Part shown: piece by piece, positions 10,486 to 41,816 of the stretch | How positions within the stretch are numbered: the first letter of the stretch is position 1 | Layout of the letters: the number at the start of each line of letters is the position of its first letter | NCBI GenBank assembly: GCA_964187785.1 | Contig: OZ076409.1 | Location: 34,164,001 to 34,228,000 of the forward strand | Direction of reading: 5' to 3' | DNA length: 64,000 bases | From: Amphiscolops sp. MND2022 | Lineage: Eukaryota | Position numbers and translations under genes: made by a program | Notes under the pieces: generated by a model | Databases searched by the model: none | Told to the model about the DNA's origin: nothing | Seen by the model: only the letters and a program-made list of their open reading frames with translations

Positions 10486-13400
10486 ATGGATTCATATTCA
10501 GGAAAGTTTCCGCTTGATTTCATTTCTTTTTGTCTAGACATGACGTCTGAACGACAGATTGAAGCAAATGAACCACAAACTACTGACCCTGCCCTTCTTG
10601 CGCAGGATTTGTCGAGTCGCCAGCACAGTGATAATTTCCAGCTGTTCGAAGAGGACGGAACAGCCCGTCCACTGTCCAACTTGTCTTCGAGTAGCGGTAA
10701 TACCGAAGAGAGCCTTTCCGCGTTCGCGGATCAGACTTTGCGTACCTTGGTCCACTTAGGTCCCAGTTTGGACATCACCATTCTGTCAGCACCAAACGAG
10801 AGTTTCCAGTAAGGAGAGCTTGAGTCTTCAACTAACAAATTCTCAGATTCTGAGGCCCGGACTACTATCCAGCCCAAAATCCAGAAAATTGATACCGAGC
10901 AACAAGTGACTTCCAGGCTGTTTGACCCAAGTACGTTTGACTTACCAGAGGAGCAGCAGAAAAATTATTTTAAAACGGACGCAAGTGAGATAGAAGACGT
11001 ATACGACAGTGCTGGAGCAGACGTGTTGACCGACAGGCCTACTTCCAGTGTTTTGGGATTCGATCCTTTTCCTGCCCCAGATGAGCCTCAGGAAACAATG
11101 AATCATGGCACCAGTAAGCCTCAGGGGCCTCACTCCCACAAAGAACCCGCTTTACCCACAGAATTGTCTGCCAACGGAAGAATCATGCTTCGCAAGTATT
11201 TTGCCCAAAACACTCCTATTGAGCTTCCTAGGGGGCACACAACGGTGGCATTCAGTGAGCCACAGAGTCATGCCATCGTGGAAATCATTTCTGACGAAAC
11301 AGTTAGGTCGTCATTGCACTCCATGCGCTCACTGGTTCTACAGGCAGTCCACGGAGGGAAGGGACAAACTGCAGGACAACTAAGGAAGGCTCTAATTCGA
11401 GGGTGTACTCCCGACAGGGGCATGACTGCTAGTTCTGAGGGAGAATCAGACTGTGAGGGCTACACGACTGATGGCAACACTAGTGGAGCCTACGCGATTG
11501 ATGATAACATGGGAGGGGCGTCTATGAGCCAAGAAGTCGACACCGACTCCAGTACACCTGTCGCAAAATTGTGTGCCGCATCGAGAGGAACAGGCGGAGG
11601 CTCATTCTCAGGACAAACTACTGTCCCTAGTCCTGGATATAGTGAGGACGATTACGAACCTCTGTGTACCATATGTCCTCAAGCTAAGCACCAACAAGTC
11701 AATCTCAGCCCTCCTCGGAAAAGACGGCCGGGCAAGGTGATGAAGCCTGCTTACTTCAAGGGGATTCAAGGACTAAGGTGTTCGTTACCGGCCCGCTGGA
11801 CCCTGACCTTGTGCACAACAAGCACAAGTTCTACTGCCATACATGCAAAACCAATGTATCCATTTTCTCTAAAGGAGCGCGGGCGATCGTCCGCCATTAC
11901 CAGTCCGAGAACCATCTCAGGAAGGACCAACGCTGGCGGTATGAACACTTGGGAAGACTCGATAAAATCACAGGCACCACTGTTCATGCTGTCAGAGGGA
12001 AGGACGGGCACATACTTTCCACGTTCGAGCTGGGAAAGGTGAAGCCACTAATCGAATCAGCGCCCCTCGTCGACATTGGCCCACGTTTCCCCTTCTATGA
12101 AGAGTATATGACCAGTGAAGGAGGATTAGCAAAACCTGAAGATGTCCGCTTAGGGACTCAAGTCGCTCTGATTGGCCGATTTGTCCCTTACTTTGGCGAT
12201 CTTACAATCTTGCAAGGACTATGGAGTGGTGGGCAACTTCACCAATCACCAGGATCTGTTTGGAAATCTCGATTGGAGCTCCACCATACTCACGGTATGT
12301 ACCTTGTTTTGTCCTTGCTAGGGTTTTGACTGAGATAGGGGAGGTCACATAGTAACTTATTTACTAGACACTTGCTTTCAAGTGAGATGGGTTCTTTCAG
12401 GCTATCTTTCATCACGTTTTCTTGCGTGGCATGGAAGACGTGGCTCAATCCGTCAACGTTTCCGGGCTGTACTCTATTGAATTCGAGCCTCAAGGAAGCA
12501 AGGAGAAGGCCTCTTTACGAAACTGGAAGTCAGGGTACCTCATTAAGCTTCAACTACAGCAGTACAGCTTGGCTTCTGATCGCAACTGCAACCAGCTACT
12601 CGTTATAGCATGACTCTTGTCCCTACTGTCCACTACACCTCAAATTGTCTGCATGTCTGGCTGTTCCTCCGACGTCCTCCAAACGGTTGAGCAGTCCGCT
12701 TTGTTGAAGAAGGGCATAAGTTAATGCACAAACGAGACTGTATTTGGACGTATTGACTTCTATACGCAACTCAAGTATTTGCTGTTCTATCTGGCACAAA
12801 GTCTTGACGAGCCCTGGATGACCGAGGCCCCTGAGCTCACCAAAGTAAGATTCATTTTTGCATCAGGGTTTGGTTGTGGTTTCTGTGTCCATATCATAGC
12901 ATTTCTTTTAGGCCATTAGCAATTGGGATTTGCGGCTCCGTTCCATCCCCGCAATATGCTCAGAAATCATAACGAAATGGCAGCCATTTCTGGACCACAT
13001 CACGAGAATTGCGCCTAGCTATGAGACGATTGGAGTTAAAAATAGGGTTGAAGTTTAGTTCAGTAACTAGCTTGAATATTGGCTTGGTCGCAGTGGTCTC
13101 ATGGCCCAAACATTATTGACAACTTCTGTTTTCTTTAGCCTCAGAGTCTGGAGTGGCAGATTATCAGCGATGACTTCTTCCAGGTCAAACTGGAATTTTA
13201 TGGGCGGATCGTATACGACTGTAAGTATCCCCCCAGTTTTTTCGTTTAGAATTATAAGGTTTTTTGAGTATCTATCCGGTCCAAAGGTCCGTAGGTCAAG
13301 GACTTATTGTTGATATCACTGTTTAGACAACGTCTGTTTCGAAAGGAGCTTGGTCGGGCACAGAGACTCTGGGTTTTTTACCTTTGGCCAACTAAACAGC

Positions 13401-14488
13401 TTCATCAGGAAACGCTGCTACCAATCCTTACTTCCCAAGCATCTACCAAAAGAGACTGACTGGACACAGTTACCCGTACTCTGCAATGCCGAACTTCGAC
13501 AATTATCCTCTAGGGATTTCCTTACTCGGTTACGGCTGAAGCAAGATCTAGATGCAGCTTCCACAGCTAAGGTGAAGCGCGATAATAGCGACCCAGAGGG
13601 CCCCATTAATAACAAGGTTGAGCTGGTTGATGGAGTGAAAGAGATATTCGTCGCGAAGGCTAGAACCTATCTCGTTATCCTTCTTGAGAACGTCTTGAAC
13701 CACATCAGTCTGAATGCTAACATCGTGAGAGGAATGGCATGCTTTGACCCAAACGTCCTGTGTCTTCCGATGAAACAAGCCAGCTTTTGCTTCACAGCCC
13801 ATTACCAGAGTTTCAGTCTTTGGGGCTGGTTGGAAGGGTCCCCCAAAACGACTGTCAGGACGAGTATCTAGAGTATGTTGGACATTTTCGTCAAACGTAC
13901 CATACTCTGAAGAAATCCCCCAATGGGTTTTCCGACATGGTCGATTTACTGTCAGCAATGCCTGAGCTTCGCAACCGAGTCCACCTCCATCGACTTTTCC
14001 AATTAAGTTGTATGTGCCTTACTAAGAACACACCTCTGCTCCCTCCCATTCGATTCCATGATGTTGACACTCAGAGACCTAAGTGTAGGTTGGGAGATGT
14101 TCTGTTGCCAGCCCAGTCTTATCTGGCTCGGGTTCTTGAATCCATCTCCATCTCGGTCTGTACAAAGGATGATTCGCTGAGTAAGCTCCGAGAAATAGAG
14201 CGGGAATTCCATACCGGCAAGGTGACTGGTGATCCATGGACTCATGTTGATGTTTTTGGTCGGGCTGACTTCTATAAGACTCTTTGCCAAAAGCACAAAT
14301 CTCTCACGCAGAAGCCCAAGTCAGCGTCTTCTAGTCGTTCCGCCTCTGGTTCCACCTCACCTGTTACTTGCAGTCGTCGGAAAGGATCTCCTGGAAAAGG
14401 GAAGCGGAAGGTAGATTTTGAGTCTAAAGAACAGACAAAGGAGGGCTCTAATTCGCAAGCTCTTGAGCAATCCCCATCTAAATCCTAA
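10486..14488 (+). pseudogene. Antisense spliced BED-finger/hAT-transposase-derived gene of element B
   Basis: Inferred GT-AG introns 12295-12400, 12845-12911, 13047-13138 and 13221-13326. Zinc finger FYCHTCKTNVSIFSKGARAIVRHYQSENH. Colinear with the element C gene. Contains several stops and frameshifts. Confidence 0.85.
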
Positions 14489-17700: not shown

Positions 17701-20695
17701 ACCGTGAACTCCTCATCCATGCCGATATCAAACCTATGTCGGGCAAATATATCATGGAGTTCCACTAAGAGAGCTTCTATTTGTTTTATCTCATTCTGTT
17801 GTAACATTGATTCTTTCCAGTCTAATACTGAGGAATTTCCGACGAGATTCTGCGTCTTCTTGCGAATTGAGTCTTTCGGCTTCTTGTCAATTCCTCAATT
17901 CTCCTAAAATTCTTTGCTGAATTGGCGTATGGGACGCTTCGTCCCCTGGGTTTTCGGGTGGAAACCAATATTGTTCGTACTGGTCATTATTTCTGTTCGC
18001 TTCAAGAAGGCTGCTAATGTAAAATATAGCATATTCTTCATTTTCGTTGAATAGATGCCAGGTGGACACTGGGTCTATTAGCGTGACGTGTTTCATCTGT
18101 TCGGGGTTAATAACTGAGAAGTTTGCAATGTGCAATCCTTTCTTATGTTTGAAGTGTTGCTCAGGGGAATTGTTGACGTGGATCCTCGTAGTCTTTTCGT
18201 TTAGTGTGACTATAGCGGCGCAAAAGGTTCACTTTCATCGTTCAGTAGATCACTGGGTTGTAGTATGCCGGTGACCGCATTTTCTGCGTAAATCTGGGAC
18301 TGAATGGGTATAACTGTGTGGTCATTTGGCAGAATAATTTCGTCCTCGTGGTTGAGGATGGGTTCCATGACATTTGAGTACTTGTGGTCAGCCGTTTTTA
18401 ATTACATCGAGAAAAAAGTGAAATTTAGTTTTCCTTGGCGCATATCTAGGACTTTATGGTTTCTTTGCAAGAATATCAATCCATTTATAGGGCTGGATAG
18501 CTTTTCCATTACTTTGAAGATTTCGTCGAACTCAATGTCTCCTACTTCACATTTTAATTCAACGGTACTCTTCGGCGTTTCTAGATCTCCGTTAACGACC
18601 ATTATTTGAAATGATGGGCAGGTCCCTCTTTTACAATAGATGGAGGCGCTAGTAGCTGTATTTTCCTGAGGTCGGCTTCCGGCATTGCACTGGAGTGTGC
18701 CCTAGTGTCAATTAGGCCGTCCAATGTCAGTTCTCCGAAGTCCATTGGGAAATATAGCATCCGCCTTTTGAATTTGAGTCCAAGGTTGGTGGAAAGGTAA
18801 TATATGATGGTTCTCCTTCCTTTTCCACTAAGATGAGCAAGAAGGTCGATTCGTCTAAGCGGCTATGTTGGCCTTCATAGTCTTCTTGCTGTTGGGGTTC
18901 CCCTGTTTCTTCTGAAATCGCTTCTGTATTTGGTAAAGGAAGGAATTGAGTCTCAAAGTCTTTAGTGTAGTCAAAGTCATAGTATCGGTCAGGGCGATCA
19001 TTGTGTACTTCTTTGTAGGTTTTGATGTAGGCCTTTTCCATTTGTTGCTGCCAGACAACGGACGGGATGCCATTGGTGTCCTTGATGTATTGGCGAAAGG
19101 TAATAATTGGAGGATCTGATATGACATATTGTCGAACCGACATATAGTCATGTATTTGGAGTCGTGGCAAAATTAAATTTTTGAATCGGGGTTTTTGGAG
19201 TTGGTTTGGCTTGAACTAGCAATTTCCGAATCCTTGGTCCTTTTGGGCCTTTCTTCGGAATTTGAGGAATTCGCATCTCTCTCTTGTGCTTGTGTCCTCT
19301 TGGGCCGCAGGTGAGCGCCAGCGCCTTGCCAGCATCTCTCAGTTGGGTAATTCTTTTTCCCACATGTGTCACACGGTGGGTACGTTGGACGCTCTGGTTT
19401 CTTGCCATCTTTTTCCTCCATTTTTTTTCTTCTTGAGTTTAGTAGCGCTTTTGTAGCAATGGCCTGTTGCTTTGCAGAAGAAACATTGGGCTTCCTTATT
19501 GGTGTTAATGCCGTTGGACAGCAAGGTATTGTTTTTAGAGGACGCCCAGGCCATTGTGGCCATTGGCAAGTCGTCTGATTCCTCCAACGCATTATGTTCT
19601 AGTTCTTTTCCGAGATGCGCGACTATTTTTTCAGTTGTTCCATTCTCTAAACGGGCCATGTTGGCTGATCGGTTCAACTTTGGAGGCAGTTTTGCGTACA
19701 ACAAGCTGTCAATCATGCTTTTCACATTTTCACCAAAAGCTTGTTCTGCCCCCTGGTTGAGTTCTTCTAAGAAGTCCGGCTATTTCATTGTAGTAGGATC
19801 GAACGTAAGTCTGTGCCATTTATGTTTGGCCGTGGCTTGAGATTCCGGTTTGACGTACTTTCTCCGGAATATGCCTAGCACGTCCTCTAAAGTTTGGCGG
19901 TTTATTGAGTTTATGTTCCTGAATGTTTGTAATGCCCCCTTGCGTAGCAGCGAGTGAAAATGGTTAATTTTCATCTGTCCTGTCATAGCTGGTTGCATTT
20001 TGATCATCGCGTGGAACAAATCTTCGAAAAGCTCGAACTTGTCGCTCTTGCCGTCAAAGGTCAGTTTGAACTAGTCTGATGGTCATCGATTCGTCCAGTC
20101 AGAAATTCAGGACTTTGCTGTTGGGTGTCGGTAGCTCCTGTCACCATGTAATGACTACGACCCGTGGTGTCCCTTAAATCACACGCAGACCGTGAGTCTC
20201 TTTTTGTAAGTTTCGATTTCGACCCGGATGAACATTCCCTATTCTCCTGACTATTTGGCGACACACCGGCTTCAGAGTCCGTGTTTCCTTAAGAGGACAT
20301 CGAACTCACAATGTTTTGAATCTCAGGGATAACTCTCTCAGCTATAGCAGTGCTAATGACTCTATTTATTTGACTATGCATCATAGACATTATTGAGTCC
20401 ATCTCTTGAGATAATCTGATATCACTGACAGGTCCCAAAGGATTGTCTAACACCGTTTTGCCTTGGGGGGATTGTTTTCATATGCAAAACTTGCTTTCTG
20501 GTCTCTTAGATGCGTGTTAGACTCAGTGTCTCCTTGTACTGATGATTGTTCAATAGCATCGGCTAACTCTCTCTCTCTCTCTATGAGATTACAACCTCCA
20601 TTTCCTAGCATAACGTCCAATCTATCTATATCGGACAATATTTCCATCTCTCTAGATTTTCTAGCTTTCGCTTTCTGACGTCTAGTAGAAGGCAT
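14712..20695 (-). pseudogene. gag-pol: gag-pol of element B, heavily disrupted
   Basis: Start MPSTRRQKAKARKSRE; gag RRKYVKPESQATAKHKW; RT KKPNGKLRLLVDLRKIN and QYVDDIG; integrase HPQTIGKLERTH; end NLRPNPNPNFSDEYRY. All match element C. Confidence 0.95.
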
Positions 20696-20905
20696 AAGAG
20701 ATTATTGCAAGAGGTAAGAGTTTAAATTGAGTTCTCAGGCTAGCAAACAAAGTTTTATTCCAATGGGTATTAACGAACTGATTGTGACTATCTCAAGGAA
20801 AATTGTGTTTTCGGGACTACAAGTCCCGGTTATTTATATTCAACACTGCATGACTTCCAAGATATATAGTGTCATCAATCTAACTTTACAACAAGAGATT
20901 TGTTT

Positions 20906-21704
20906 TGTAGGCCGTTTAATTGGATCATGTTAATAACATTACATGTGAAACAACTCGTATTGGGTTACATGTATAGCATGTGAAGAGAAAATAGTAAATT
21001 GACACAAGGGCCATGATACATGGCACTTCATAATTTGCACTATTTATGGAAACCAGCTTCTCGTTTGGGAAAGCTTCAGAGGAAAAGGGGAAAAGGACTG
21101 AAAGTTTACCTCAGTTTCAAGGGTGAACTACAACCAAAATTTATGCGCATCCGTAATAGCAATTTACTACAGGCCTTATGGGCCGCACAAGTTTACTAAT
21201 TGCATTTCTGCATAGTATATTGCATTTCAAAGTGGACTGGTAGTCCCGCTGCCATAGCACCGACAAGATGAATAATATAATTGCTGTACTAAACGGCGTT
21301 GTTCAACAAACATACTGCACTGTGATTGCTTGATATTCTCATGGACTGCTGGTCCAAGGCGACAAGCAAAGGAACATTTGAACACGTTTCCTTTGCCTGT
21401 ACGCTTTGGTGTCCAATTATTAACACAACTAATAACATATTGCACTTTTACATGTGTAAAGCAACGAAATACCAATCTAACATAAATAAATGGACTGAGT
21501 AGAAATAATTTTACATATGGTCCGGGTATTAAAACTAAACAACATCATAATTTGACATAAAAGTAGCGGATTCTAAGCAATAACTTCAAAGTTTGTTGAG
21601 AAATTAGTTTTAATTCAGGGGGAAAGTGCTGGGAAGGTCCCCATGACAGCTGTAGCTTATTGTGTAGAAATTTCCATCGCAGGCGGCAGCCCGCGACAGT
21701 CACA
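20906..21704 (-). repeat. 5' LTR of element B (inner boundary uncertain, may extend to 20783)
   Basis: Begins TGTGAC-TGTCGCGGGCTGCCGCCTGCGATGG on the minus strand and contains the repeat shared with 8582-8821. TATAAATA lies near 20831-20838 and an AGTCACA ends at 20783. Confidence 0.75.
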
Positions 21705-25578: not shown

Positions 25579-26900
25579 TGTAACTGTCGCAGGCTGCCGC
25601 CTGTGATGGCACTAAGATCACGACAACAGCGGAAGGGCAAGAGATCGCGACCGGAACCTTACCAATCTACTGAGGAGAAAACATTCAAAATGCAAACTTT
25701 CATATTGTTCCGTTAATTACACTTGTTAATGTTGCTGACTCCATTTATATATATATATATATATGTTTTGCTAGTATTAGTCTGTTAGAGCCAACAACCA
25801 AAAGGCTCAAATGATGTGTAGTTATTTGCAAATTTGGAAACGCAGTACAACAATGCATTTGCAATAATAAATAGAAGCAGCTAACGAGCGTAAAGGAAAC
25901 GAGTTCAAGTAAACGTCACTCCAATTCCGGGGACGTCACTTGAGCTTACTACAATTAGCCAATCACGTGCTGTAATTCTTGCTGTACTATTGTTGTATTT
26001 GTTAATTGGCCGGTTAAGGCCACCTGACGAAATTCCACTCTCATTGCTCACTACTTTGGTCAAACGGCCGGTTCCGGCCGTGAAGCAATAATGAAAAGGA
26101 ACTAACTTATTACATCTGTACTTCATTAGTAATAATACAATTGTTCTTTCATGTTATTTAAATGTTCATTGTTGATAATATGAAGCTTTGTTTGGTATTT
26201 GGCCGAGTAAGGCCCATTGAACTAATATATATTGTTTCAACTGGTACTCTGGTCAAATGGCCGATTGTGGCCATTTCATGCATATTTGTGTTTTGTTGTT
26301 CAGTTAACCAGATATTAACCCGGAACTAGCATAAGTTCATCTCCGAAGCAAATGAAGGTGCTTATGGTATTATATTATCTACGTGATCCAAGCATATGTA
26401 AAATAGACAAATAAGGCCATTTTCCTTCACTTCCCTATTGTGCTGTCTGTACTTACGGATTTAAGCCTATTCCGGTTTCAACATGAAATATATTTTCATG
26501 AATAGTAGATTGATACCACAGCCCTTATGTGCGGTTATACATTCCATTCTCAGTGTAATATATAATAAATCTTGTGTCGGCACGTGCCTCCACCTCACTT
26601 TGCGTGAGGTATGTAAACAAAGGTATTTGTTGACACTTTGATATGCATGCCTTAATCGGCAGTTCGTTTGAAGCTACTATTTTGACTACATGACCCATAA
26701 CTGCCATTCCCTAGATGTCCCCGAAGATATGTGAATATCAGGGTTTTCATCATGGAGCTAATGATCATATGATACTACCAACCTAACTAGTTATGTAAGG
26801 AATGTGATTGTCATTCCCTAAAAGGTATAAATAGTGTTATCCCGTTGGGGAAATCATTAATTCCTTTCATTTTGCTCTAGTTAAGTTTAATCTACAAACG
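25579..26900 (+). repeat. 5' LTR/leader of element C (inner boundary not determinable)
   Basis: Its start is repeated at 41572. TATAAATA at 26826-26833 lies about 130 nt before the gag ATG. Confidence 0.65.
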
Positions 26901-26954
26901 GCACCGCTGTTATTTCCGTATTGATCAATATATTGTTAATTCGGAATCGTTTCT

Positions 26955-28676
26955 ATGCCTACTACTAGAAAACAGAAAAAGGCAAGAAAGTCAAGAGAAG
27001 CAGAAATGCTATCTGACTTTGAGAATTGGGATATTATGCTCGGAGGAAATCACTTTGATAGCAATGAGAGAAATGAAAGTGTGAATAGTAATCAGGCCGG
27101 CAGGCCAGAAAGCTTATTTGGAGGTGAATTTGGAGATGAGAATGAGAATGAGTTCCCAAACCCGGGAAATAATGGACCGAGTCCAAATACCGAATTAGGC
27201 CATAATTCAATCAGAGAGTGTTCAAGTGTTGAAATCAATAGATTGTCGAGTGAGTTAAATTCCCGTATATCTCGAGAGATGGATGAAATGATGAATAGCG
27301 TCAGTGTTCAGATTCAAAGGGCCATAAATGAGGCAATCAGTAGCCAAATTTTGCCTCAAATCCAAAATGCAGTTATGGCCGGGTCGGGACAATTGACCAA
27401 AGAGAGATGGAACGTTCCGGCCGAGAGACCGGAAGGATATTCCGAAATACTGCAAAACTTAGAACCTAGGAACAATTCTAAGAGTAAACAGACCAACGAC
27501 CGTCCCAAAGACGGATTCACAAGCACGAATTCTCGTGCTTACGACATGGTGACAGGAGAAAACGAATCTCCAATCGAAGTTCCTGAGTTTCTCACGGGAC
27601 GAATACCATCCACCAGTCATCTCAACAGATCAAATGATGACCTTCCCCTGCTCGACACGACGATCCCAGCACAAGAGAGAATTGCTACGGCTGCCGACTC
27701 CGATCCCATCACCCGACTGGCAGACGTCTTGACCACAATGCAAAATAGACCGACAGCCCAACAACTCACTATACGCCCAGTCAATTCAAACACAATGACT
27801 TTTGATGGCAAGAGTGAAAAATTCGAGCTGTTTGAGGACCTGTTCCACACGATGATCAAGATGCAACCGGAAATGACGGAACAGATGAAAATAAATCACT
27901 TCCACTCACTGCTGAGGAAGAATGCTCTCCAAACCTTCCGGAACATCAGCTCGAGCAATAGACAGACTTTAGAGGACGTATTGGTAATATTCAGACGAAA
28001 ATACGTCAAACCCGAATCACAGGCGACTGCCAAACATAAATGGCACCGTCTAGTCTTCGATCCCAACACGATGAAACTGCCAGATTTCCTTGAAGAATTA
28101 AATCAAGGGGCAGAAAAAGCATTCGGGGATCACGCGCAGAAAATGATTGACAGTTTGCTCTACGCAAAACTGCCACCAAAACTGAAGCGGTCTGTAAACA
28201 TAGCCAGACTCGAAAACGGCTCTTATGACGAAATAGTTGCTCATTTAGAGAGAGAGTTAGAACTAAATGCCCTCGAGGAATCAGACGATCTACCAATGGC
28301 CACAATGACCTCCTCGACAACAAAACCCAAGACTCCTCTAACTACTGGGCAAATGTCTGATATCACTTGCAACTATTGCAAGGAGAAGGGCCATTTGGTC
28401 AAAGACTGTGAAAAATTGAAGAAGAAAAAGGAAAAAGATGCCCAACAAGGCAAACAAACTCAGAAAAAGACGTATCCGGAGTGTGGCACTTGTGGTAAAA
28501 AGAACCACCCGGAAGAAAGATGTTGGCAAGGTGCTGGTGCGCATTTCAAACCCAAACGCACCAGACCAGATGACGCTAATGACGGTAAACCCAATTCAAA
28601 GGCACAGAAACCACAAAACAAATCAACATCTTCCAACTCACAGGCCTCATCTTCCAATGATGAGTCAAAAAACTAA
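26955..28676 (+). CDS. gag: Gag of element C (573 aa)
   Basis: Open ORF with capsid-like FDGKSEKFELFEDLF region and two CCHC knuckles (CNYCKEKGHLVKDC, CGTCGKKNHPEERC). Confidence 0.95.
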   Translation: MPTTRKQKKARKSREAEMLSDFENWDIMLGGNHFDSNERNESVNSNQAGRPESLFGGEFGDENENEFPNPGNNGPSPNTELGHNSIRECSSVEINRLSSELNSRISREMDEMMNSVSVQIQRAINEAISSQILPQIQNAVMAGSGQLTKERWNVPAERPEGYSEILQNLEPRNNSKSKQTNDRPKDGFTSTNSRAYDMVTGENESPIEVPEFLTGRIPSTSHLNRSNDDLPLLDTTIPAQERIATAADSDPITRLADVLTTMQNRPTAQQLTIRPVNSNTMTFDGKSEKFELFEDLFHTMIKMQPEMTEQMKINHFHSLLRKNALQTFRNISSSNRQTLEDVLVIFRRKYVKPESQATAKHKWHRLVFDPNTMKLPDFLEELNQGAEKAFGDHAQKMIDSLLYAKLPPKLKRSVNIARLENGSYDEIVAHLERELELNALEESDDLPMATMTSSTTKPKTPLTTGQMSDITCNYCKEKGHLVKDCEKLKKKKEKDAQQGKQTQKKTYPECGTCGKKNHPEERCWQGAGAHFKPKRTRPDDANDGKPNSKAQKPQNKSTSSNSQASSSNDESKN

Positions 28677-31148
28677 CTTCGCCACGACTCCAATACAATC
28701 AACTAATATCCGTCCGTCAATACATCAGGTCGGATCCTCCAACAAAAACTTTTCATCAATATACACAACAATTGATGGGCTATCCCTCTGTTGTCTGGCA
28801 GCAACAGATGGAAAAAGCTACCATCATCACCTACAATAACACCCATTTATTCCAGAAACCAATTCCTGTTTGGGACCCTGATTATACTACTACCTTCACT
28901 ACCCGATTCAGGCCTATTCCCCTGGTTGACAATTACAACCCTACCTACATAGATCCAGACTACGGCAGAGACCCCTATTGGGACACAGAAATCTACAACC
29001 AGGAACAACTACAATTCCAATATGTCTTAGACGACATCGAGCACTATAATAGAACGGTCCACGAGAACCCTCCAATCACCCACAATAAAAAGACCAGAGC
29101 ACTAGTTGAAAACTGGCAAATGAATGATGGCACCAACCATCCAGTGTTCCCAAACCCATTAGGGACCGAGACCCATGAAGACGTTGCTCAACCAATACCA
29201 CAATCACTATTAGACGAGAAGCAGTTCCAGAATGTCTTAATCACCAGGGACGGTGAACCAGACTGTATACCACTGTCAACCAACATCAATCTCAAATGCA
29301 AAAAACGCATGTTGTACTTCCCCATGGACTTTGGGGAATTGACCATAGACGGACTTATTGACACTGGAGCGCTGTCCAGTGCAATTCCTGAAATGGACCT
29401 CCGGAAAATTCGACTTCTATCTCCACAATCTGTCATCCGGGAAGGTCCGCCTCCAAATTTCCAAATAATGGTTGCTAATGGGCAATTGGAAACTCCTAAG
29501 AGTACCATAGAGCTCAAATTTGAAGTTGGTGACATTGAGTTTCATGAGAGTTTTATAGTCATGGAACACCTGACAGGTCAAACCCGAATCACAGGCGACT
29601 GCCAAACATAAATGGCACCGTCTAGTCTTCGATCCCAACACGATGAAACTGCCAGATTTCCTTGAAGAATTAAATCAAGGGGCAGAAAAAGCATTCGGGG
29701 ATCACGCGCAGAAAATGATTGACAGTTTGCTCTACGCAAAACTGCCACCAAAACTGAAGCGGTCTGTAAACATGGCCAGACTCGAAAACGGCTCTTATGA
29801 CGAAATAGTTGCTCATTTAGAGAGAGAGTTAGAACTAAATGCCCTTGAGGAATCACACGACCTACCAATGGCCACAATGACCTCCTCGACAACAAAACCC
29901 AAGACTCCTCTAACTACTGGGCAAATGTCTGATATCACTTGCAACTATTGCAAGGAGAAGGGCCATTTGGTCAAAGACTGTGAAAAATTGAAGAAGAAAA
30001 AGGAAAAAGATGCCCAACAAGGCAAACAAACTCAGAAAAAGACGTATCCGGAGTGTGGCACTTGTGGTAAAAAGAACCACCCGGAAGAAAGATGTTGGCA
30101 AGGTGCTGGTGCGCATCTCAAACCCAAACGCACCAGACCAGATGACGCTAATGACGGTAAACCCAATTCAAAGGCGCAGAAACCACAAAACAAATCAACA
30201 TCTTCCAACTCACAGGCCTCATCTTCCAATGATGAGTCAAAAAACTAACTTCGCCACGACTCCAATACAATCAACTAATATCCGTCCGTCAATACATCAG
30301 GTCGGATCCTCCAACAAAAACTTTTCATCAATATACACAACAATTGATGGGCTATCCCTCTGTTGTCTGGCAGCAACAGATGGAAAAAGCTACCATCATC
30401 ACCTACAATAACACCCATTTATTCCAGAAACCAATTCCTGTTTGGGACCCTGATTATACTACTACCTTCACTACCCGATTCAGGCCTATTCCCCTGGTTG
30501 ACAATTACAACCCTACCTACATAGATCCAGACTACGGCAGAGACCCCTATTGGGACACAGAAATCTACAACCAGGAACAACTACAATTCCAATATGTCTT
30601 AGACGACATCGAGCACTATAATAGAACGGTCCACGAGAACCCTCCAATCACCCACAATAAAAAGACCAGAGCACTAGTTGAAAACTGGCAAATGAATGAT
30701 GGCACCAACCATCCAGTGTTCCCAAACCCATTAGGGACCGAGACCCATGAAGACGTTGCTCAACCAATACCACAATCACTATTAGACGAGAAGCAGTTCC
30801 AGAATGTCTTAATCACCAGGGACGGTGAACCAGACTGTATACCACTGTCAACCAACATCAATCTCAAATGCAAAAAACGCATGTTGTACTTCCCCATGGA
30901 CTTTGGGGAATTGACCATAGACGGACTTATTGACACTGGAGCGCTGTCCAGTGCAATTCCTGAAATGGACCTCCGGAAAATTCGACTTCTATCTCCACAA
31001 TCTGTCATCCGGGAAGGTCCGCCTCCAAATTTCCAAATAATGGTTGCTAATGGGCAATTGGAAACTCCTAAGAGTACCATAGAGCTCAAATTTGAAGTTG
31101 GTGACATTGAGTTTCATGAGATTTTTATAGTCATGGAACACCTGACAG
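28005..31148 (+). repeat. 1572-bp tandem duplication (gag 3' half to protease)
   Basis: 28005-29576 is repeated at 29577-31148, with GTC microhomology at the junction and at least 7 substitutions. Confidence 0.95.
28667..28673 (+). promoter_or_regulatory. -1 ribosomal frameshift heptamer A AAA AAC (second copy at 30239-30245)
   Basis: Directly precedes the gag TAA. The -1 frame (KKLTSPRLQYNQLISVRQY...) is open into pol. Confidence 0.88.
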
Positions 31149-34100
31149 GTCCAATTATCGGCCTAATGTTCCTTCAACGAAATCATACAGTCCTGGACAT
31201 GAGACAAGGAATACTGAACTTCCCGTTCTTCTCAATGCAGCTCAAAACAGCTGACCATAAATACTCAAATGTCTTAGAACCAATTCTCAATCCCATTGAG
31301 ATAACCATTCCGCCAAATGATAGAGTCCTAATTAGGACCAATTCCCTACTGTACCCTGAGAATGCTGTCACTGGAATTTTACAACCGAGCGACCTTCTAC
31401 ATGAAGAAGGCGACATCACATTCTGCCCAGCCTTGGTCACTCTGAATGACGGCAATATATCGATACCAGTGAGCAACTTCACAGACCACCCTTATAAACT
31501 CAAAAAGGGACTACATATTGCCAATTTCTCTGTCATGACGCCAGAACAAATGAAGTATGTCAAACCGGTAGACCCGGCATCAACCTGGCACCTTTTGCAG
31601 AATGACCAGGAGCAAGCAGCCCATTATGTCAGCAGTCTCATCAAAACCAATAGAAATCCACAAAACTCCGAAAATTATTGGTTCCCAACTCCAGAAAACC
31701 CTGGAAATCCTGAGGAACACACACCCATACAAAAACAAATCCTAAGCGAGTTACAGGCCTTACAGGACCTGGAGACACTCGACCCCACCACAGACGCAGA
31801 ATCGCGTGCAAAATTCTTAGAAAACTTTGACTGGAAAGATTCCACCCTTACTCCTGAAGAGAAGGAGAAAATTGAGGAATTGTTAGTGGAATTCCATGAC
31901 ATCTTTGCACGACACCGATTTGATATAGGCATGAACGAGGAATTCAAAGTGAAACTGACACCTAAGGACGATTCCCCAGCCTATAGTCAAAGCCTTCCAG
32001 CTCCTATCAATCTGAAGGAGGACATCCTAGTCGAATTAGTCATGTTGCACAAATATGGCATAATAACCACACTGCCGTTCTCAAAGTATGCAAGCCCAAT
32101 ATTCGCCCAAAAGAAACCAAATGGGAAGCTACGACTTTTGGTTGACTTGAGAAAAATCAATAACCTCATCTCGGATGATTATAAAAACAATAATCACCCT
32201 GTTAGCACCCTGGTTGATGCTGCCCAACACTTGGCAGGCAAAAAACTGTTCTGTAAATTAGACTGTTCGCAGGCATATCACTGCCTACCAATGGCCGACC
32301 AACGCTCAATCGAAATGTTGGCTTTCAATTTTGCCAGTCGTACATTAGCGTACAGACGCTTGGCACAAGGCCTTAGTCGGTCACTATCCGCATTCTCGAG
32401 TTTCATGAGGGAATACCTCGACAAAGTCATTAAAGCGGATCAGTGCGCCCAGTATGTGGACGATATCGGCATCGCAGCCAATGATGTTGACCACCTCATA
32501 ATGAACCTGAGAGCAACATTCAAATGCATTCAGGAAGCAGGCCTTAAGTTGACAATGCACAAATGTCACTTTGGTGCAAAAGAATTGATTTTCTCGGACG
32601 GACTATTACCCCACAAGGCGTCAAACCCCAGAAACAGAACGTGCAAAACTTTCTGGAAAAGACCAAATTCCCAAAGTCGAAAAAGGCTTTGCAGCGCTAC
32701 TTGGGATTCTTGAACTACTACAGGAATTATGTCCCAAGACTCTCCGAACGCCTTGCTCCATTCTACAAGATGCTCAAAAGTGACGAAAAGGTCCTAGTAT
32801 CGAAAGAATTAGTCCAACAATTCGAAGAAATCAAAAAAGCACTCGACAAATGTTGCGATTTAGCCCTACAACAGCCTATCCCGAACAAACAAATCGCACT
32901 AATGACTGATGCAAGTTTTGGTGCAGCTGGATATGCGGTCTTAAAAGAAGACGATCCAAACCAGAAATTCACATCTCTCCGAAAACCCTACGCACCGGTG
33001 GCCTATGGATCAAAAACCTTCACCCCAGCCCAGATCAAAATGTCAGTATATGCCAAGGAATTTCTGGCAATTTACTTTGCATTCAAAGAATTTGGACATA
33101 TATTCTGGGGTGCGCCCAAACCGGTCATTATCCTTACCGACAACAAAGCCACTACGAGATTTTTCCAAACGAAAATAATACCCCCAGCCCTGTGGAATGC
33201 ATGCGATTATGTGATTCAATTCAATTTTGTCATAGCACATATCCCGGGAGCACAGAACACAGCAGCTGACTATTTGTCCCGATTGGAGGCAGATCCGAAG
33301 GATAAATTAGTCATGAAAATCCGTGAAGACGTGCAAACTTTACCCATTGAGATAAATGTTCAATCTGCGGGGGTATCACAGGAAGAACAAATATTCTATA
33401 CGAATGATGATGACGAGACAGAGGAACAGTATTGGGCAAGAAAAGAAGCAATCAGGAAAAATCCAATGACTGATGAGCCCACTGTTACCATAGAAACTCT
33501 GTCAACCAATCTGGTCAAACAACAACCAGACATCCAAGTCCGATTAAAGAAAACAAACCAGATAATCATCGAGCAGTCCAAAGATGCAGTATTGCAACAA
33601 TTGAAGGCAAAGCTCCTTCATGAAGACTATTCAGAAAACATACTGCAACAGGATGCCCGATATAGACACTATGCAAATAATCTGGAACGAATTGTACTCA
33701 AGGACGAAATCCTGACGAGGCAATATTTTGATGAAACAGGGAATGTTAAATACCATCAAATTTTGCTCCCGCAACACCTACTTCGGGAATTGCTCCACTC
33801 CCTTCACGGGACAGCGCATAAACATCCCGGGATTTCAAAAATGTTGCAGGAAATCAGACAAAGGTATTACTACCCTAGCATGGCTAAACACGTCAAAAAG
33901 TGGGTAGAAGGGTGTGAACAATGTGCCAGAGACAAGAGAGTCCCTAACGCAACGATCACACCTGAGCTGCTCAACTTGCCCGAATGGGACCTTGGACCTG
34001 AAGACGCCATGCAGATTGACCTATTGCCGAATCTTCCCCCAAGTGGAGGGTATGAAAATGTCCTAACGGCAATTGATGTTTTCTCCAGATATTTATTCGC

Positions 34101-35448
34101 TTATCCCCTTACAGACGCATCAGCGATCAATGTGGCAAAAGCGCTCATTGACATAATGACCAAGCATGCATATCTGCCAACGACTCTTATTACTGATAAG
34201 GGTACTGCATTCACTTCTACGATTATTGCGGAGGTTACGCAAATTTTGGGCATTACACTCAAATGTGCAACGACAAAGCACCCGCAAACAATCGGGAAAT
34301 TAGAGCGGACCCATGCCTCATTAAAGACAAATCTCAAAATGGCATGTGGGGAATACCGCCGACAATGGCATAAATATTTGCCATTAGCAGTACTTAATCA
34401 TAATACGAGTTATCATGCCAGTATTGGTTGTGAGCCAACGAGAGTATTCCATGGCAGAATTCCCTATAACATTCTGGATCACAAGCTTGGAAATAATCCA
34501 AACGAAAAGATCAACCCTACAACCGAATTTGCAGAAGAAATCCAAAACCGGACAAAAATCCTAATTGACAAAACGAAGCAGAACATTATGCAGTCGTACA
34601 TCAAGTACAAAGAATATTACGACGGCAAAGCAAAAGCTGCTCCATTGAAGGAGAATGACTACTGTTTCGTCTTACAGCCGAAAGCGAATCATCAAGGATC
34701 AAAAATTCCATTCCGCGATTACCGTTGGGTTGGACCATTTGTAGTCCAAAAGGTTTTGCCAAATGAAAACTACATAGTACGAAGGATCAATACGAACAAA
34801 ACTCAAATTTTGCATCGCATTCGCCTTAAAAGGTTTATTCCCAATCAACCGCTTGAGGACAATTTCCGAGAACAACGTCTGCAGCCAGACGAAGAAATTG
34901 TCATTCCGCAAGACGACCTATACGTCATAGCGTGGGAAACAGATTTTGGAGAGCAGCTAGTTACACGAGACAGCGAGACTATTCCGACTAGCGTGCCGAA
35001 TGGCGAACAGCCGAACACGGCGGAAACGAATGCAAATGACGGAGACGAGACCGAAGCGGATTACATAATCACGCGAGAAGAATTAAACAACGACAACGCG
35101 GCACACAGCCGGAATAAACGCTTAGATGATGACGTCACTGAAAGAAATAAAGCTACTGCAGTGACAGAAAATACCAAATCTGATTGGCCGAATCCGGCCG
35201 TTTCCCCAAAAAACCAAGAAAATTCTTTGCCGAGTACGGCAGGTGGACCGGAAAATGATGAAATTTTTTCAGAAAGAAATTCAATGAATGAAAACGATGC
35301 ACAAAACTCTCCCAAAAGGGGGGATGATATTATCGTGCCCGAAATATCTGAAAATGATGCTAGAAATGAAAGTCTGAGCCCTAGAGGAGGGAAATATAAC
35401 CTCAGGCCTAACCCTAACCCAAACTACTCAGAAGACTTTAGATACTAA
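30239..35448 (+). CDS. pol: Pol of element C (PR, dUTPase-like spacer, RT, RNase H, integrase), one frameshift near 32583
   Basis: LIDTGA; YVDD; TDASFGAAG; H-H-C-C; IDLL...IDVFSRY...TDKGTAF...GKLERTH; WVGPF. The 1-nt loss in an A run may be a mutation or a sequencing error. Confidence 0.95.
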
Positions 35449-35673: not shown

Positions 35674-38600
35674 TTAGTCTTTAGAGGACCCTTGAACGGC
35701 TTTCTTGGATGCAGACGAAATTGTAGAACTGCTACTACCTGCTCGTTTCCTCTGCTTCTTGGAAGGCACCTTTACAGCTGAATCATCAGGGATGGACGAG
35801 GCGGTATCCTTTTCTATCCGGACAGAACGAGTAGAAGGAACAGCAGTAACGGCCTTATAGGAAGTGAGAAGACTCTTGTAGATCTTAGACCTACCAAACT
35901 CATCCACAAGGGTCCAAGGATCATAGTCAGCAGGGAAAGCAGAACGCTCGAAAGAGGAACTGAGAACTGAGAACTTCTCTAAATTGTCATCCGAGCAGCA
36001 ATGAGAAATGGAATTGGGCACACAGGAAAGGTAACTCTGGCAAGGCACCACTAGATCGGCAAAACGGCCCTGACACCCCGTTGTGTCAACACTCCCGAAC
36101 AGTACTGGGGGATATTGGGGGCTAACACTAGTCAGACACAAGCAGCAGAGTTTGAACAGATAGAACAGGTGCTCATGAGTTTGGAAAAACTCAAGCCCCA
36201 TTAAAAAGTCTATAAGATCGACGGAATTCTCCATTAGATCGAAATCTGGAGGATAGTTGACCCGGAGGTAGTCCAACAGAGCCAGATATTCGTCTCGACA
36301 ACTGTTCTCGTTGGCACTAGTGACCCATGATCGAAGCTGGAAAGTAGAATATAGCACATCGAAGTGCCGGAGCCCGACCTCAGAAGGCCTTTTGAAAAGC
36401 ACGAAGGGATCAAAAGCAGCCAACCCCTTTATCACTTCAGAGCTCAGACCAGCTTGACTAAGGACTTGCTTGACTAGATACTGAATGAATTGCAACGCCT
36501 CTTTGACAAAGCTGCTGGTCGTCTCTGCAACCGTCTTCTCGATAGCAGCCTTCTCCGATTTCTTGTTCAGGTGTGTGACTTCTGCACTCTGTTTACTAGC
36601 TGTAGCTATCCGGTTTGTGAGACGGTGCCGGATAAGGAAGTCTTCCTCACTCATGAATTTGCCCTCGCTCACCTTAAACCCGAGAAGGAGGAACCACGAG
36701 TTCTCGAGGGGAATAGTTTCTGGCAAATAACATCGGGCGCACAGTTTTGAAACAAAGCGGCAAACCTCCCCACAGAGGAAGAACGAAGCATCACGGCGAC
36801 CCCGCAGATTGATGGCGAAACTGGTAACGTCTGAAATACAACAGTCGTGATTATGAGAGGAATAGGATATACAAACGAGACAATGTTGATAGTGATTCAA
36901 CAACTCAAGGAATTAAATTATCAGAACGATGTCTTAGTGCACTGACGTGAAATGAAACCGTATACTCACAATCGCCAATTATACGTTGGAAGAATTCCAA
37001 TTTAGCAACGAAGAAGAAGTCACAGATGATGGACCACTCGAAGCTTTGGACCTGATTGTGGACTCCTTGCATTCCTTGGTGAGGGGTGTGCGTAGTCAAG
37101 TACTGTCTGATTGCCTTCCAATTCTTCACAAGTTCTCGGCAAAGACTGGGGAGGCTTGGCAAATCTAATTTGCAGGTGTCGATGGCCTTAAATGAACCAA
37201 ATTGTCTCTCAAATGCACCTACCTTCAAACCTCTAACTACATGAGTGAACTTAATATACTTACTCTTCCCAGATCAGGAGATTCCAGAACCCAGTCCTCA
37301 CCAGTAGCAGCTCCCAATGAAACGATCAGGCACTTTAGGACAGAGAAGAAGTCGATCCGTCCAAATACGCTGTAGGTGGGCTTGTGCATCATCTTCTGAA
37401 GCTGCAGCTGCTCAAAACGAAAGCAACTCTGCACTGCTCGGGGAAAGAACTCATTGTGATCTATGGTTTGGATCAGCTCTACAGGACATCCTGAACAGGC
37501 GACGATATCGGCTTTGGTTGAAACCACAGATAGTAGTCTGGATATCGAACCCAAGTCTCCAGTCAGATCAGCGGAGGGAAGCCCACTTCGGCACACAAAG
37601 ACGCGACAAAGAGAATCGCCTTTCCAGAACTTGATGGACATGAGCCTATTCACGCCCACATTCTCAAATTCGATAGCGAAGCATTGGGTGGTAGCAATTT
37701 GCTCTGCTAATTCACTCATGGCACAATTGAAAATGTGTTGGAAGACGGCCTAAAGAAGAAAAAGACAATTATGAAATGTGTAGGGAATCTATACCCTCCC
37801 TGAGTAAATGTTAGCCTGAAAGGGAACTTACCGAGATCCGTTCTTCCCCCCAATCAAAGTCGCAATATCTAGTTTGATAGTTCGTCAGAGATCCTATCTG
37901 AGCCCACAGTCTGCGGAGTACTCCAAGATCACCGTGGGTTTGCACGAAGTCTCCAACGAGGTGTATTTGTGTCTTGACCCTCGATGCAGGAGTGACGAGT
38001 GTGGTTGACGTCCCTTTCACGAAGTCATCATAGAATGGGAAGCGTTCTCCGATGTCTATTAGTTCGACGTGTATAAATTTGGGGAGTTCTTTCGCCAGCT
38101 CAATCTTAGTGAGGATCTTGCCGTTCCGCCCTCTGACCCGATGCTGCACTTTCCCAGTCACTGGATCAACGCTTTTGAGGTGCTCATAGCGCAACCTTTG
38201 ATCACGCCTGAGGTGTTTTTCGGTCCTGTGGTGACGCAGAATCTCCAGTGTGCCCTTAGTTTTTACAGAAATATTCTTCTTACATATATGGCACCACACC
38301 ATATAAGGATTATGAAGGGGATCAGCTGGCCCGGAGATGAACGATCGGGTCCAGCCAATTTTGGAGAAGAATTCCTCCTTCATTGGAATGCCCCGTGTGT
38401 GGCCGCGCCGTTTCTTCTTGGGCAATTTGCTAGAGCTCGAAGCTAGAGGCTGTGCTGGGGCCGTCTGGGTGCGTAATTCAGAGAGCGTGGCATCGAGACT
38501 GGATTGATCGGTGGATTCAAAACCTGCTTGGGTAGGGTCAGCTCGAGAAGGTGGAACGCGGCTGAAAGGTTCCTTGAAAGCCTGTGAGATGAGTGCCATC

Positions 38601-39836
38601 TCGCCAGAACTGTCTGTATCATTGAAAGACTCTAACCCTCTACTCTCTTGGCCAGCACTGGATCCTTCAGAGGTGTCAGTCCCTGATCCAGAACAGTATT
38701 CAGCCCGCGAACTATCTTCCGAATCACTTTGCAGCCCTGGGCCGGGAGTTTGAGCCCTTGGCCGGATCTTGAAGTGGTCAGTTCGGGCACTGGAAGTGAC
38801 GGGAGCCCCTCTAACCGCTCCGATTACCATCTGCTCCATGGTGGAGTAGGACATTTTCAAGGTCTCGTCTGTAAGGACCCTCAGAAGATGATAGATTTGT
38901 GGCTCCGTGAACGCCACAGTTCTATGACCAAGCGGGAAGGTGATAGTACTGGCATCATCATCGAAATACTGTTTCAAAATGGCCCTACTACGGCCAGAAA
39001 GCTCCCTGATCTTGGGGTCCTGAGCTGCTGAAGTGGAAGGACGCATGGGATCAGGCATCGCAGCGAAAGTATCAGTTGACGACCCTTCTACTGCTGTGTC
39101 TGCTACATTACCTATTGGAAGGTAGGCATACAATTGAGGAGCACTAGCCTGACTGGATGTGTCGCCGGCTTCTTCAGTTCCAGTCTCATCGCCCAACCAC
39201 CTGACTTTTGGTGTTCCTGTTGGCAGCTTGGGGACATCACATAGGGAAGAGCTTTCGTCCGTTTCAATCTGGAGAAATGAAGCTGCGGACATTTCGGCAG
39301 GAGTCACGTTAGTGGGCAACAATTCCGGTAATATAGTCCTCGAGGAAGGAGCAATCGTTAGCCCAGTCTCTAACTGAGTCAAATTGAGCTCGTCGGTTTC
39401 ACCGGCTACGCCTGAAGTTGGGGTACTAGTACGAAAGACCGGTGCAGTAACCCGTGCTTCGACCCCCGGAAGAAGGACCCTCAGGTATACCTCTCTCAGT
39501 CTCTTGTTCTCTTCTCTCAGAGTTCTCCGCAGTATGTCCCTCTGATTGCTGTTGGGCCTGTTCAAGGAGCTGGAGCTTTTCGTCGGCATAAGATGTTACA
39601 TCAACGTTGCTGTCTGTGCTGCTGGGAGACCTTGGTGGCCTGATTGGAGGAAAAGGAGGAGGAGACAATTGTGGTCTTCGGACGGTAGAGGAAGTACCCA
39701 CAGAAACAATCGTTTGAGTATGTTGGTCGGGAATGTCCGCTGCAGAGTTAGTTTGTGTTTGCAGTTCGTCTCCTGGCTGGTTTGCTAAGCAAAAGGAGAT
39801 GAAATTTGGCGGTGAGCTTCCTTGAAAAAAATCCAT
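35674..39836 (-). CDS. Antisense spliced gene of element C: BED-type zinc finger plus inactive hAT-transposase-like protein (about 1205 aa from ATG 39589)
   Basis: Exons 39589-37832, 37749-37264, 37186-36970 and 36830-35674 join in frame through GTAAGT/GTGAGT...AG introns. The conserved start (MDFFQG..FISFCL, 39836) is in another frame. The hAT call rests on motif pattern. Confidence 0.85.
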
Positions 39837-40871
39837 TTTACCGCATTAGAAAACTTCCGGAAGTGTTTGAAAATCTGAACGAAACGTGTTATCACGCGTT
39901 TACTAATGGAAACAGGAAGCATGTTGTGAACGGATTTAACTCTGATCAAGTTAAATTTTAGTTCGGAATAAAAACAAACCAACCTTCAGATGAAGACAAC
40001 CTGGGACTGAATTGGATGTGGGAACGAGTCCTTGTCCGGCTGTAGAAGGTGATGGATGTGGCCGAAACCGGCTGGAGAAGGGGGATCAAGGGTTGCTCTG
40101 GGATGAAGAATCGGCTAAGAAGTGTCGTGTGCGGGGAAATAAGTATCAGTCGAGAAGAGACAAATGGAAGATAATCAGAATTAAAATGGAATTGAAATTG
40201 GGTAGAAGAATTGAAGAAATTGGAAAGTTGGAGTTCGTGGTTGAAGATTATTACCAGACTAATATTATGGATTATCTACATATTTATTCTGTACATGGAG
40301 TCTGCCAGCGAAGTGTACAATGGACTTTGTTATTTACAGCTTATTTAGTTAAAGGGCCGGTTATGGCCGTTTGCCCTGTTTTGTTTCGCCGTTTTGTCAA
40401 GTTACCCTTAGTTAGAATTTTCGCCATCTTGGATTATTTAGATTTATTATTTTCGCCATTTTTATTATTTAATTTTACAGTTTATCGAAGCTTAACGCTG
40501 ATTGGTTGAAGCCATTTTGAAAGAATTCCGCGTCGCATGTCGTTAATTGCTATCAGGCAAACTGTTAATTACCCACTTGAAACGGGTGAAGATAATATTT
40601 ACGACTCAAGCGTCATTAACACCTCTCAGGGTGATGGTGCTGATGGGGGGTAAACACTGAGCTATCAAAGGATGCCGACTACTTATAAAATTCCATTCAG
40701 AGATATTTACGTCGGATCAGGGTAATTCACCGGTAACTCAACCACCGAATATGAATTGCCGGGAAAAGGCCCGACTTGGCCAAATTCTTGAGTTGGTGAA
40801 TTCATTCCACTTTGAAACTTCAAGCAAACTAGTCGACTCCCCTGCTCAGCAAGATTGCGAAAAAACTAATA

Positions 40872-41616
40872 ATGCAAAGATATAACTTAACCAAGAAGCT
40901 CTTCGACTTTGAAGAAGAGGATTCAGAAAAATCAGCAAATTCGATAATCTACATATCCAGCGACAGTGAGAATGAGGCTTCAAGCGATTGGGACTCAGAC
41001 TGGTCTACTGATACGGAGGCTATAATAGACAGGATCGAACGGGAAGTTAAAGCGGCACCAATTCCTATTGCCGGACGGGGGATGACAATAGAAAGCTCAG
41101 ATGACGAAATGGCGGCAGGACCCAGCTACATTCAGTCTGTTCCGCCTTCTACCCCGAAATTGGGATTTGAGTACTTCAACAGAGAAATGTGTCTAGCGCC
41201 GTCCAAAAGGCAGAAGAAGACGAGGGTTGAGCTCTGCACTACTGTTTTGCCTGTTTTGGAATCTCCATTATCTCCTCCCGACCACGAGAGGGGACCAAGT
41301 ATTGATACCCCTCCTGTACAGTCGACCTCAGGGACCTTCTACGCCTCGTACCATGTGCAGAATATCAAGCCTTACCAGGACGTCAGCGAAAGTCTACACA
41401 CGGGCTGTATGGTATGTGGTAAATCGAGAGAGCAGATAAAAGAGGAAAAGATCAACTGGTATATGGAGAGATCGACGCCCAAGAGTGAACCAGCCTATAT
41501 CACCGCATTGCGACGAGAAGCATACTCTAATGGCTTAAATGCAGGTAGTCTACTTTTCCTATCACCCGCAGTGTCGCAGGCTGCCGCCTGTGATGGCACT
41601 AAGATCACGACAACAG
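40872..41616 (+). CDS. Accessory sense ORF3 of element C, unknown function; predicted 262 aa ending inside the LTR
   Basis: Open into the gap. The 5' LTR copy supplies ...TTAEGQEIATGTLPIY* (stop at 25671-25673). Has an acidic N-terminus and CMVC, and a homolog in element B. Confidence 0.85.
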
Positions 41617-41816
41617 NNNNNNNNNNNNNNNNNNNNNNNNNNNNNNNNNNNNNNNNNNNNNNNNNNNNNNNNNNNNNNNNNNNNNNNNNNNNNNNNNNNN
41701 NNNNNNNNNNNNNNNNNNNNNNNNNNNNNNNNNNNNNNNNNNNNNNNNNNNNNNNNNNNNNNNNNNNNNNNNNNNNNNNNNNNNNNNNNNNNNNNNNNNN
41801 NNNNNNNNNNNNNNNN
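41617..41816. other. Assembly gap (200 N)
   Basis: Run of N starting 45 nt into the 3' LTR. Confidence 1.

Follow-up and report, generated by a model that had tools for sequence, protein, structure and literature searches.

A covarying hairpin follows a purine-poor candidate plus-strand primer site in one subfamily of a Gypsy-type LTR retrotransposon clade of Amphiscolops sp.

It is still a matter of debate how reverse transcriptase chooses a single plus-strand primer, for which purine richness is both the textbook rule and a filter in LTR annotation. Ty3/Gypsy retrotransposons, as described for Ty3, have LTRs bounded by TG and CA, a 5-bp target duplication, a tRNA primer binding site (PBS), the pol order protease, reverse transcriptase, RNase H and integrase (PR-RT-RH-IN), and a plus-strand primer site directly upstream of U3 (PMC5371799, PMC3185511). 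A review of known primers reports no consensus for the polypurine tract (PPT), and only single pyrimidines in some of them (PMC3185511). In the plant copia-type Sireviruses (Pseudoviridae) the octamer AGGGGGAG has been named as PPT (PMC2829016), and the PPT/LTR junction carries a conserved inverted repeat with its left arm upstream and the PPT in the loop (PMC2829016, PMC3601003); a systematic search for PPT-region hairpins has been called for (PMC3601003). Retroviruses, Ty1 and Tf1-like elements possess a U-box or T-box, which is rich in U and C and immediately precedes the primer site (PMC10085805, PMC5766924), while the fungal GalEa elements have a Conserved Hairpin Site where the standard priming signal is missing, which lies outside the LTR at the 5' junction and replaces the PBS (PMC5445492). 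In HIV-1 and SIV, conserved pairing near the primer site overlaps a coding frame and includes the G-rich part of the PPT itself, although the authors of that work doubt a role in priming (PMC3616985).

In the 64,000-nt stretch of Amphiscolops sp. MND2022 DNA analysed here (the window), element C is a Gypsy-type LTR retrotransposon, and its subfamily is a Ty3/Gypsy variant with all tested features of that group except the purine tract. Its 5' LTR (25585-27546, plus strand, 1962 bp, TGTCG...CGACA) is readable in full, with its end set by the primer site at 27547, and in relatives with paired LTRs, which are direct and likewise bounded by TG and CA, the alignment of 5' and 3' LTR stops at this same LTR/primer-site junction. 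The PBS (27547-27558, plus strand) is flush with the LTR and complementary over 12 nt to the 3' end of tRNA-Leu(CAG), counted as the gene end plus the added CCA; such a tRNA-complementary site sets the clade apart from GalEa and from Tf1 self-priming. The LTR also contains a TATA-like box (26826-26833, plus strand) about 720 nt upstream of its end, matched in most close relatives by a comparable box about 695-840 nt short of the LTR end, and the first approximately 200 codons of gag (26940-28676, plus strand), which continues through the primer site. Across the clade gag has its start within the LTR, by about 600 nt, and crosses the tRNA primer site in frame as MVTG (26940-27560 in the window). 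Of 48 elements, 27 share a conserved U3 motif, GGAAACG-N-R-TTCAA (25895-25908, plus strand), allowing no more than one mismatch; it is non-coding, and is a candidate factor site or antisense promoter element.

The pol region (30236-35448, plus strand) has the order PR-RT-RH-IN and occupies two frames in this copy. Upstream of pol is a 1572-bp tandem duplication (28005-31148) of the gag end and pol start, 99% identical where compared, which is either real or an assembly error. Some close Pol homologues (P0051, P0070 and P0085) carry the extra Pfam domain PF00692, which we take to be dUTPase. ORF4 (40833-41616, plus strand) overlaps the plus-strand primer site and extends 28-32 codons into the 3' LTR, where it stops; it encodes approximately 260 aa with an acidic N-terminus and a CxxC motif, is conserved across subfamilies, and had no match in Pfam or the atlas, with all homologues found being unnamed. 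The LTR starts at 25585 and 41572 are identical over 45 nt, after which a gap of 200 N (41617-41816) interrupts the 3' LTR and makes the target duplication of element C itself unreadable, so that all duplication figures given below are those of relatives. Between pol and ORF4 are three antisense ORFs conserved in relatives (35674-39595, minus strand), one with a BED/C2H2-like zinc-finger motif which serves as a lead only. An antisense, apparently multi-exon conserved gene is seen here, in element B (10813-14488, plus strand) and in five relatives (L034, L040, L046, L050 and L056); it had no Pfam match above cut-off, but matched zf-BED, zf-C2H2_12 and FAM200-type clusters in the atlas at 0.84-0.87 (again a lead only), and may be derived from a DNA transposase.

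The clade is very large. A 15-mer spanning the LTR end and primer site, which samples elements independently of the hairpin, occurs 7,449 times in the genome, and from the first 100 places listed we retrieved 60. A 24-mer pattern for the hairpin gave 1,389 genome matches and none in the control; these were often paired about 14 kb apart, and in 20 fetched pairs the LTRs (1.5-2.0 kb) ran from the TG of the motif to a flush primer site. Ten of the 60 primer-site loci without an LTR start were dropped, as were three with spurious starts (two of them later placed via the 3' LTR) and 12 of 40 downstream fetches without a usable 3' LTR start. A Gag tree made with a fast method and left unrooted groups 45 of the 48 fully placed elements, which have 29-99% identity to C, and an exact 5-bp target duplication was present in 33 of the 38 elements with both ends read. 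Searches with the reverse transcriptase gave at least 120 homologues, those listed being all unnamed, and weak matches to solved structures (best E 4e-12). Two elements with short LTRs (L095, 413 bp, and L083, 364 bp) share the primer site of the clade, have exact duplications and begin their LTRs with a strong hairpin, but show no Gag match after the primer site, and are possibly non-autonomous. Most of the 956 pattern matches to the tRNA-Leu 3' end lie in a tandem array on G000:C8 from 35.59 Mb, with a spacing of about 235-300 bp, and this array may supply the primer for the clade.

The original prediction described a hairpin at the LTR start of element C, located at LTR nt 1-24 with a 10-bp stem and a 4-nt loop (25585-25608, plus strand) and repeated at the 3' LTR start (41572-41595, plus strand), and its counterpart in element B, the 5' LTR of which lies on the minus strand (20147-21698, 1552 bp, hairpin at 21698-21675, primer site beginning at 20146). 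The two LTR starts do match at 23 of 25 nt (25585 plus versus 21698 minus), and the 25-mer has three matches in the window versus none in 100 shuffles. The remainder of the LTRs could mostly not be aligned, as had been stated, with the exception of a 94-nt piece of 69% identity at the gag start. Both stems have nine base pairs, or the predicted ten when the terminal U-G of the sense RNA is counted, and the sense RNA folds at -14.7 kcal/mol (z -4.1) in C and -15.9 kcal/mol (z -3.6) in B, compared with -10.5 and -11.2 for the antisense. Both substitutions between B and C keep pairing through G-U, but since both are CpG-type transitions they are weak evidence alone for selection on such pairs. 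The 3' LTR start of element B is deleted (junction near 8820), and hence this element is uninformative on the PPT. The position of the TATA-like box places the hairpin in U3, so that it would be transcribed from the 3' copy only, where it directly follows the primer site.

Variation among relatives indicates that the LTR-start hairpin is real and selected beyond coding. In 41 distinct variants, which were found without the stem sequence by anchoring on the primer site or upstream bases, the stem shows the covariation asked for, with 27 double-sided changes versus 10.7 in shuffles and 88.5% of stem cells paired versus 81.8 in shuffles; neither value was reached in any of 500 shuffles, although relatedness alone can beat shuffles of this kind. 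Stem registers slid along the sequence pair in 28-59%. Left out of this alignment were 10 upstream-anchored matches with more than 11 mismatches and three out-of-register families, one of which (L271) is a true relative. Pairs 5-20 and 8-17, which join third codon positions, switch among G-C, A-U and U-A: the ORF4 tree has two separate lineages in which G5-C20 became A5-U20, and G8-C17 has changed to A8-U17 with unchanged amino acids in a further lineage and to U8-A17 with a changed peptide in yet another. The A5 of a further element (L100) was rejected as a compensatory change, as its 3' LTR has G5 and the change is therefore post-insertion, and it remains as one row of the alignment. The boundary peptide varies between SQAAACDG, SHPSRCDG and SRPQRCDG while the stem persists, and distant families have different stems of different lengths at the same place.

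The suggestion that coding constraint on SQAAACDG contributes to the conservation agrees with this peptide being the end of a real ORF, ORF4, which crosses the LTR boundary. At four-fold sites in C's subfamily (16 elements, 11 of them chosen via the 24-mer) the major base has a frequency of 0.81-1.00 from -5 to +17, versus 0.33-0.73 at 15 flanking sites, and 10 primer-site-anchored LTRs have the same frozen pattern up to +23, where the constraint ends sharply; the flanking wobble sites are saturated. The loop bases are frozen within C's subfamily and variable between subfamilies, and therefore pairing alone is insufficient as explanation. Conservation of the stem is also imperfect: 11 of 33 distinct clade junctions fail to beat shuffles, and pairs 3-22, 9-16 and 10-15 are open in 8-11 of the 41 variants (9-16 and 10-15 in 11). 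A C5-U20 break is fixed in one lineage (9 of 83 loci, and about a quarter of the 100 listed matches when counted by eye), and further fixed breaks are C4-A21 and U3-U22. A broken stem with a conserved peptide, which would have spoken against an RNA structure in the original prediction, was found in a single lineage, in which pair 5-20 is broken and Ser kept. Searches with Rfam covariance models gave no matches at E up to 5 for 41300-41616. With regard to the strand, the 18 recurrent types contain nine G-U versus two A-C at pairs 4-8, reflecting few independent events, and folding energy is better for the sense strand in 18 of 30 distinct starts when these are folded as RNA, and in 9 of 30 when they are folded as DNA. 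Together these weakly suggest that the hairpin acts on the sense strand, be it as RNA or as plus-strand DNA.

The 3' LTR start had been correctly placed at 41572, and the 22 nt before it are pyrimidine-rich with no purine tract, as claimed. This region consists of a U/C-rich box (41550-41563, plus strand), which is the pyrimidine tract noted before, followed by the purine-poor PPT counterpart ACCCGCAG (41564-41571, plus strand), which would comprise the primer and a 2-nt spacer, and in place of which sisters have AGGGGGAG. In contrast to canonical Ty3/Gypsy elements, the site has four to five purines in 10 and runs of at most two in C's subfamily, lies under an ORF which enters the LTR, and is followed by the covarying hairpin. 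C's subfamily is one clade by the ORF4 tree (100/100), the longest purine run in -14 to -1 is 1-2 nt in 16/16 placed members, and the pattern for the subfamily junction gave 854 matches (control 15), of which 99 of the 100 listed, judged by eye, run on into the hairpin. In sister subfamilies that share this hairpin the site has AGGGGGAG or shorter G runs, and in other branches it reads GCGGGAC, GCTGGCC or GCGGCCC, or is a full 14-purine tract. A normal PPT is thus absent from C's subfamily, but is present flush with the LTR in sisters that share the 24-mer. In the purine-poor group the 5-bp target duplication is exact in 10 of 15 readable cases and has one mismatch in four; exact duplications are rarer than in the other elements (23/23), and at least two of the imperfect copies are old, with 87% and 90% LTR identity. 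One purine-poor element (L079) has an exact duplication and 100% identical LTRs, which shows that this type has inserted recently.

The arrangement of the site is that of an ordinary PPT in its position, its upstream U/C box and its cut register, and so gives no support to the expected non-canonical end definition. All 27 distinct junctions have G at -4 and G/C at -6, with G/C at -7 to -3 and mostly A at -2, the purine fraction at -22 to -14 is 0.04-0.30, and predicted hybrid stability is highest at -10 to -3. HIV-1 RNase H is described as preferring A/U at +1, G/C at -2 and not A at -4 relative to its cut (PMC5766924), and at 23 of the 27 junctions this consensus fits a cut 2 nt before the LTR, compared with 14 and 13 for the next-best registers and four for a flush cut, bearing in mind that it comes from another enzyme and that ORF4 codon periodicity may favour one register. 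Degeneracy of the primer site has precedents, but to a lesser degree in the literature covered.

The comparison with other systems gave partial likenesses. The sisters share with the Sireviruses an identical AGGGGGAG, and the clade shares with them conserved structure at the PPT/LTR junction, but here both arms belong to the LTR, with the primer site on the 5' side of the stem. As in GalEa a conserved hairpin accompanies an LTR junction that lacks a standard priming signal, but the clade has an intact PBS and carries its hairpin within U3, and as in HIV-1 and SIV the pairing near the primer site overlaps a coding frame. The U/C box, for which the U-box is the precedent (PMC10085805, PMC5766924), has a candidate function only, and unlike in U-box systems also encodes hydrophobic ORF4 residues in most families. 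Differing from the bipartite PBS described for Ty3 (PMC5371799), there was no duplex between U3 and tRNA beyond shuffles: pairing of the U3 segment with the rest of the primer tRNA (one tRNA gene) had a median quantile of 0.47, and its strength versus neighbouring windows was gone versus composition-matched shuffles (1/33 at 0.05 or below). Pairing of U5/PBS with the U3 start was rejected for the same reason (4/33), as were primer translocation from the transcript start, with the best upstream 12-mer repeat in the LTR reaching 7-10 of 12 at scattered positions, and a conserved upstream stem holding the primer site, as the 40 nt upstream beat shuffles in 3/33.

We also compared the clade with other LTR families, using 26 distinct PPT-plus-TG junctions among the first 30 of 2,538 matches, some of which are probably chance matches. 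A fold better than that of 95% of shuffles was seen for eight of these 26 unrelated LTR starts, in several of them beginning at base 1, and for 13 of the 22 starts from this clade (Fisher p 0.08, rank test p 0.005); the hairpin is stronger in element C's clade, but may not be unique to it. Purine count and fold energy have a rho of 0.30, with samples that are not independent. The hairpin is equally strong in sisters with a normal G tract, from which it follows that it did not arise to replace the PPT. Hairpins at unrelated purine-tract LTR starts (L295-L324, and element A at 1804, minus strand, in the window) hint at a wider feature.

Our tentative preference, which could well prove wrong, is that the G/C-rich, purine-poor stretch still acts as plus-strand primer and that the hairpin probably helps. 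The purine-poor 6-mer would be kept as primer by its G/C strength and be shielded by the U/C box, and RNase H would keep to the usual register and cut 2 nt before the LTR, with integrase removing the two extra bases; such trimming has been described (PMC2829016), and its use in element C is our inference. Overlap with ORF4 may have eroded the purine run through G-to-C changes (Gly to Pro/Ala codons), with hybrid strength and cut register kept. The RNA of the U3 start is itself G/C-rich and could misprime; it would fold on itself and off the minus-strand DNA, helped by G-U pairs where the complementary DNA has A-C mismatches, and so leave only the upstream fragment to prime. That the hairpin is likely to aid priming is suggested by HIV-1, where duplex stability and removal of the downstream fragment matter for primer choice and govern its fidelity (PMC2665208). 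Against such a role, RNA structure has been considered unlikely to modulate the PPT, which acts while hybridised to DNA (PMC3616985), and any causal link between hairpin and purine-poor site is hypothetical. A stronger version, in which RNA structure sets the plus-strand start because the hairpin, beginning at LTR base 1, defines where the primer ends and has let the PPT decay into purine-poor coding sequence, we consider doubtful; if true, the weaker hairpins at unrelated LTR starts would be a general, overlooked Gypsy signal.

Alternatively, the degenerate PPT may be self-sufficient and the hairpin serve another step at the LTR end, for instance as a plus-strand DNA hairpin or palindrome for integrase or Gag or in strand transfer, which is a serious possibility if on the whole an unlikely one. 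It agrees with the presence of the hairpin with or without a purine-rich tract and in 8/26 unrelated LTR starts, with the double use of nt 1-4 as integrase end sequence, with the frozen loop bases, and with sense and antisense DNA folds that are about equal (sense better in 9/30), whereas stem sequence and length vary between families, contrary to a fixed protein site, and the preference for G-U over A-C (9 to 2 in recurrent types at pairs 4-8) would be meaningless in duplex DNA. This sense-strand bias is just what would be expected of an RNA signal that acts in packaging, in RNA stability or in the translation of ORF4, and the hairpin does lie within ORF4 and on the 3' side of the inferred genomic RNA; a location at the boundary by coincidence is nevertheless unlikely, as the stem starts within the first three LTR bases in most, very different families, keeps this position even in families without a long ORF across the boundary, and loses its constraint abruptly at +23.

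Less probable still is that plus-strand synthesis starts at an upstream purine run, and that integrase then cuts the LTR end guided by the hairpin. Of 16 purine-poor elements, 12 have runs of at least 9 nt in the 200 nt upstream, nine of them near -133, but the other four have no such run, the positions are variable, the runs are Lys/Glu/Arg codons, and wobble bases -5 and -2 are frozen as expected of a primer at the boundary; to our knowledge trimming of 60-130 nt has no precedent, which also counts against this. It is very improbable that coding constraint together with the integrase end sequence explains the match and that the hairpin is due to chance: ORF4 does span the boundary, and its S-Q/H..C-D codons fix C4, C6, A7, U18, G19 and G21, but freezing of wobble sites from -5 to +23 only, and compensatory changes at wobble-wobble pairs and with altered peptides, have largely refuted it. 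We give hardly any credence to the pyrimidine tract and CAG being a splice acceptor at the LTR edge, even if the sequence of element C reads like one, because the AG is not kept: two elements, L079 (identical LTRs, exact duplication) and L110, have TG, and other families have AC, CC or AA at this position.

The importance of the locus lies in a recently active subfamily with hundreds of copies, which integrates precisely without a purine tract beside sisters that keep one, and which thereby offers a natural series in which the purine content can be told apart from the G/C strength, the cut register, the U-box and the structure downstream. Should the hairpin have a role in priming, it would be a cis-signal absent from the literature covered: our search of the open literature gave no description of element C's clade, nor of a hairpin wholly inside the U3 start.

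Finally, the junction of ORF4 and LTR start is also found in tandem arrays, with five copies at a period of 1545 bp at 47.79 Mb of G000:C1 (L058) and three copies at a period of about 2.55 kb at 32.61 Mb of the same contig, and the window itself contains, at 55757-57757, a degenerate tandem repeat whose units measure about 184 bp.
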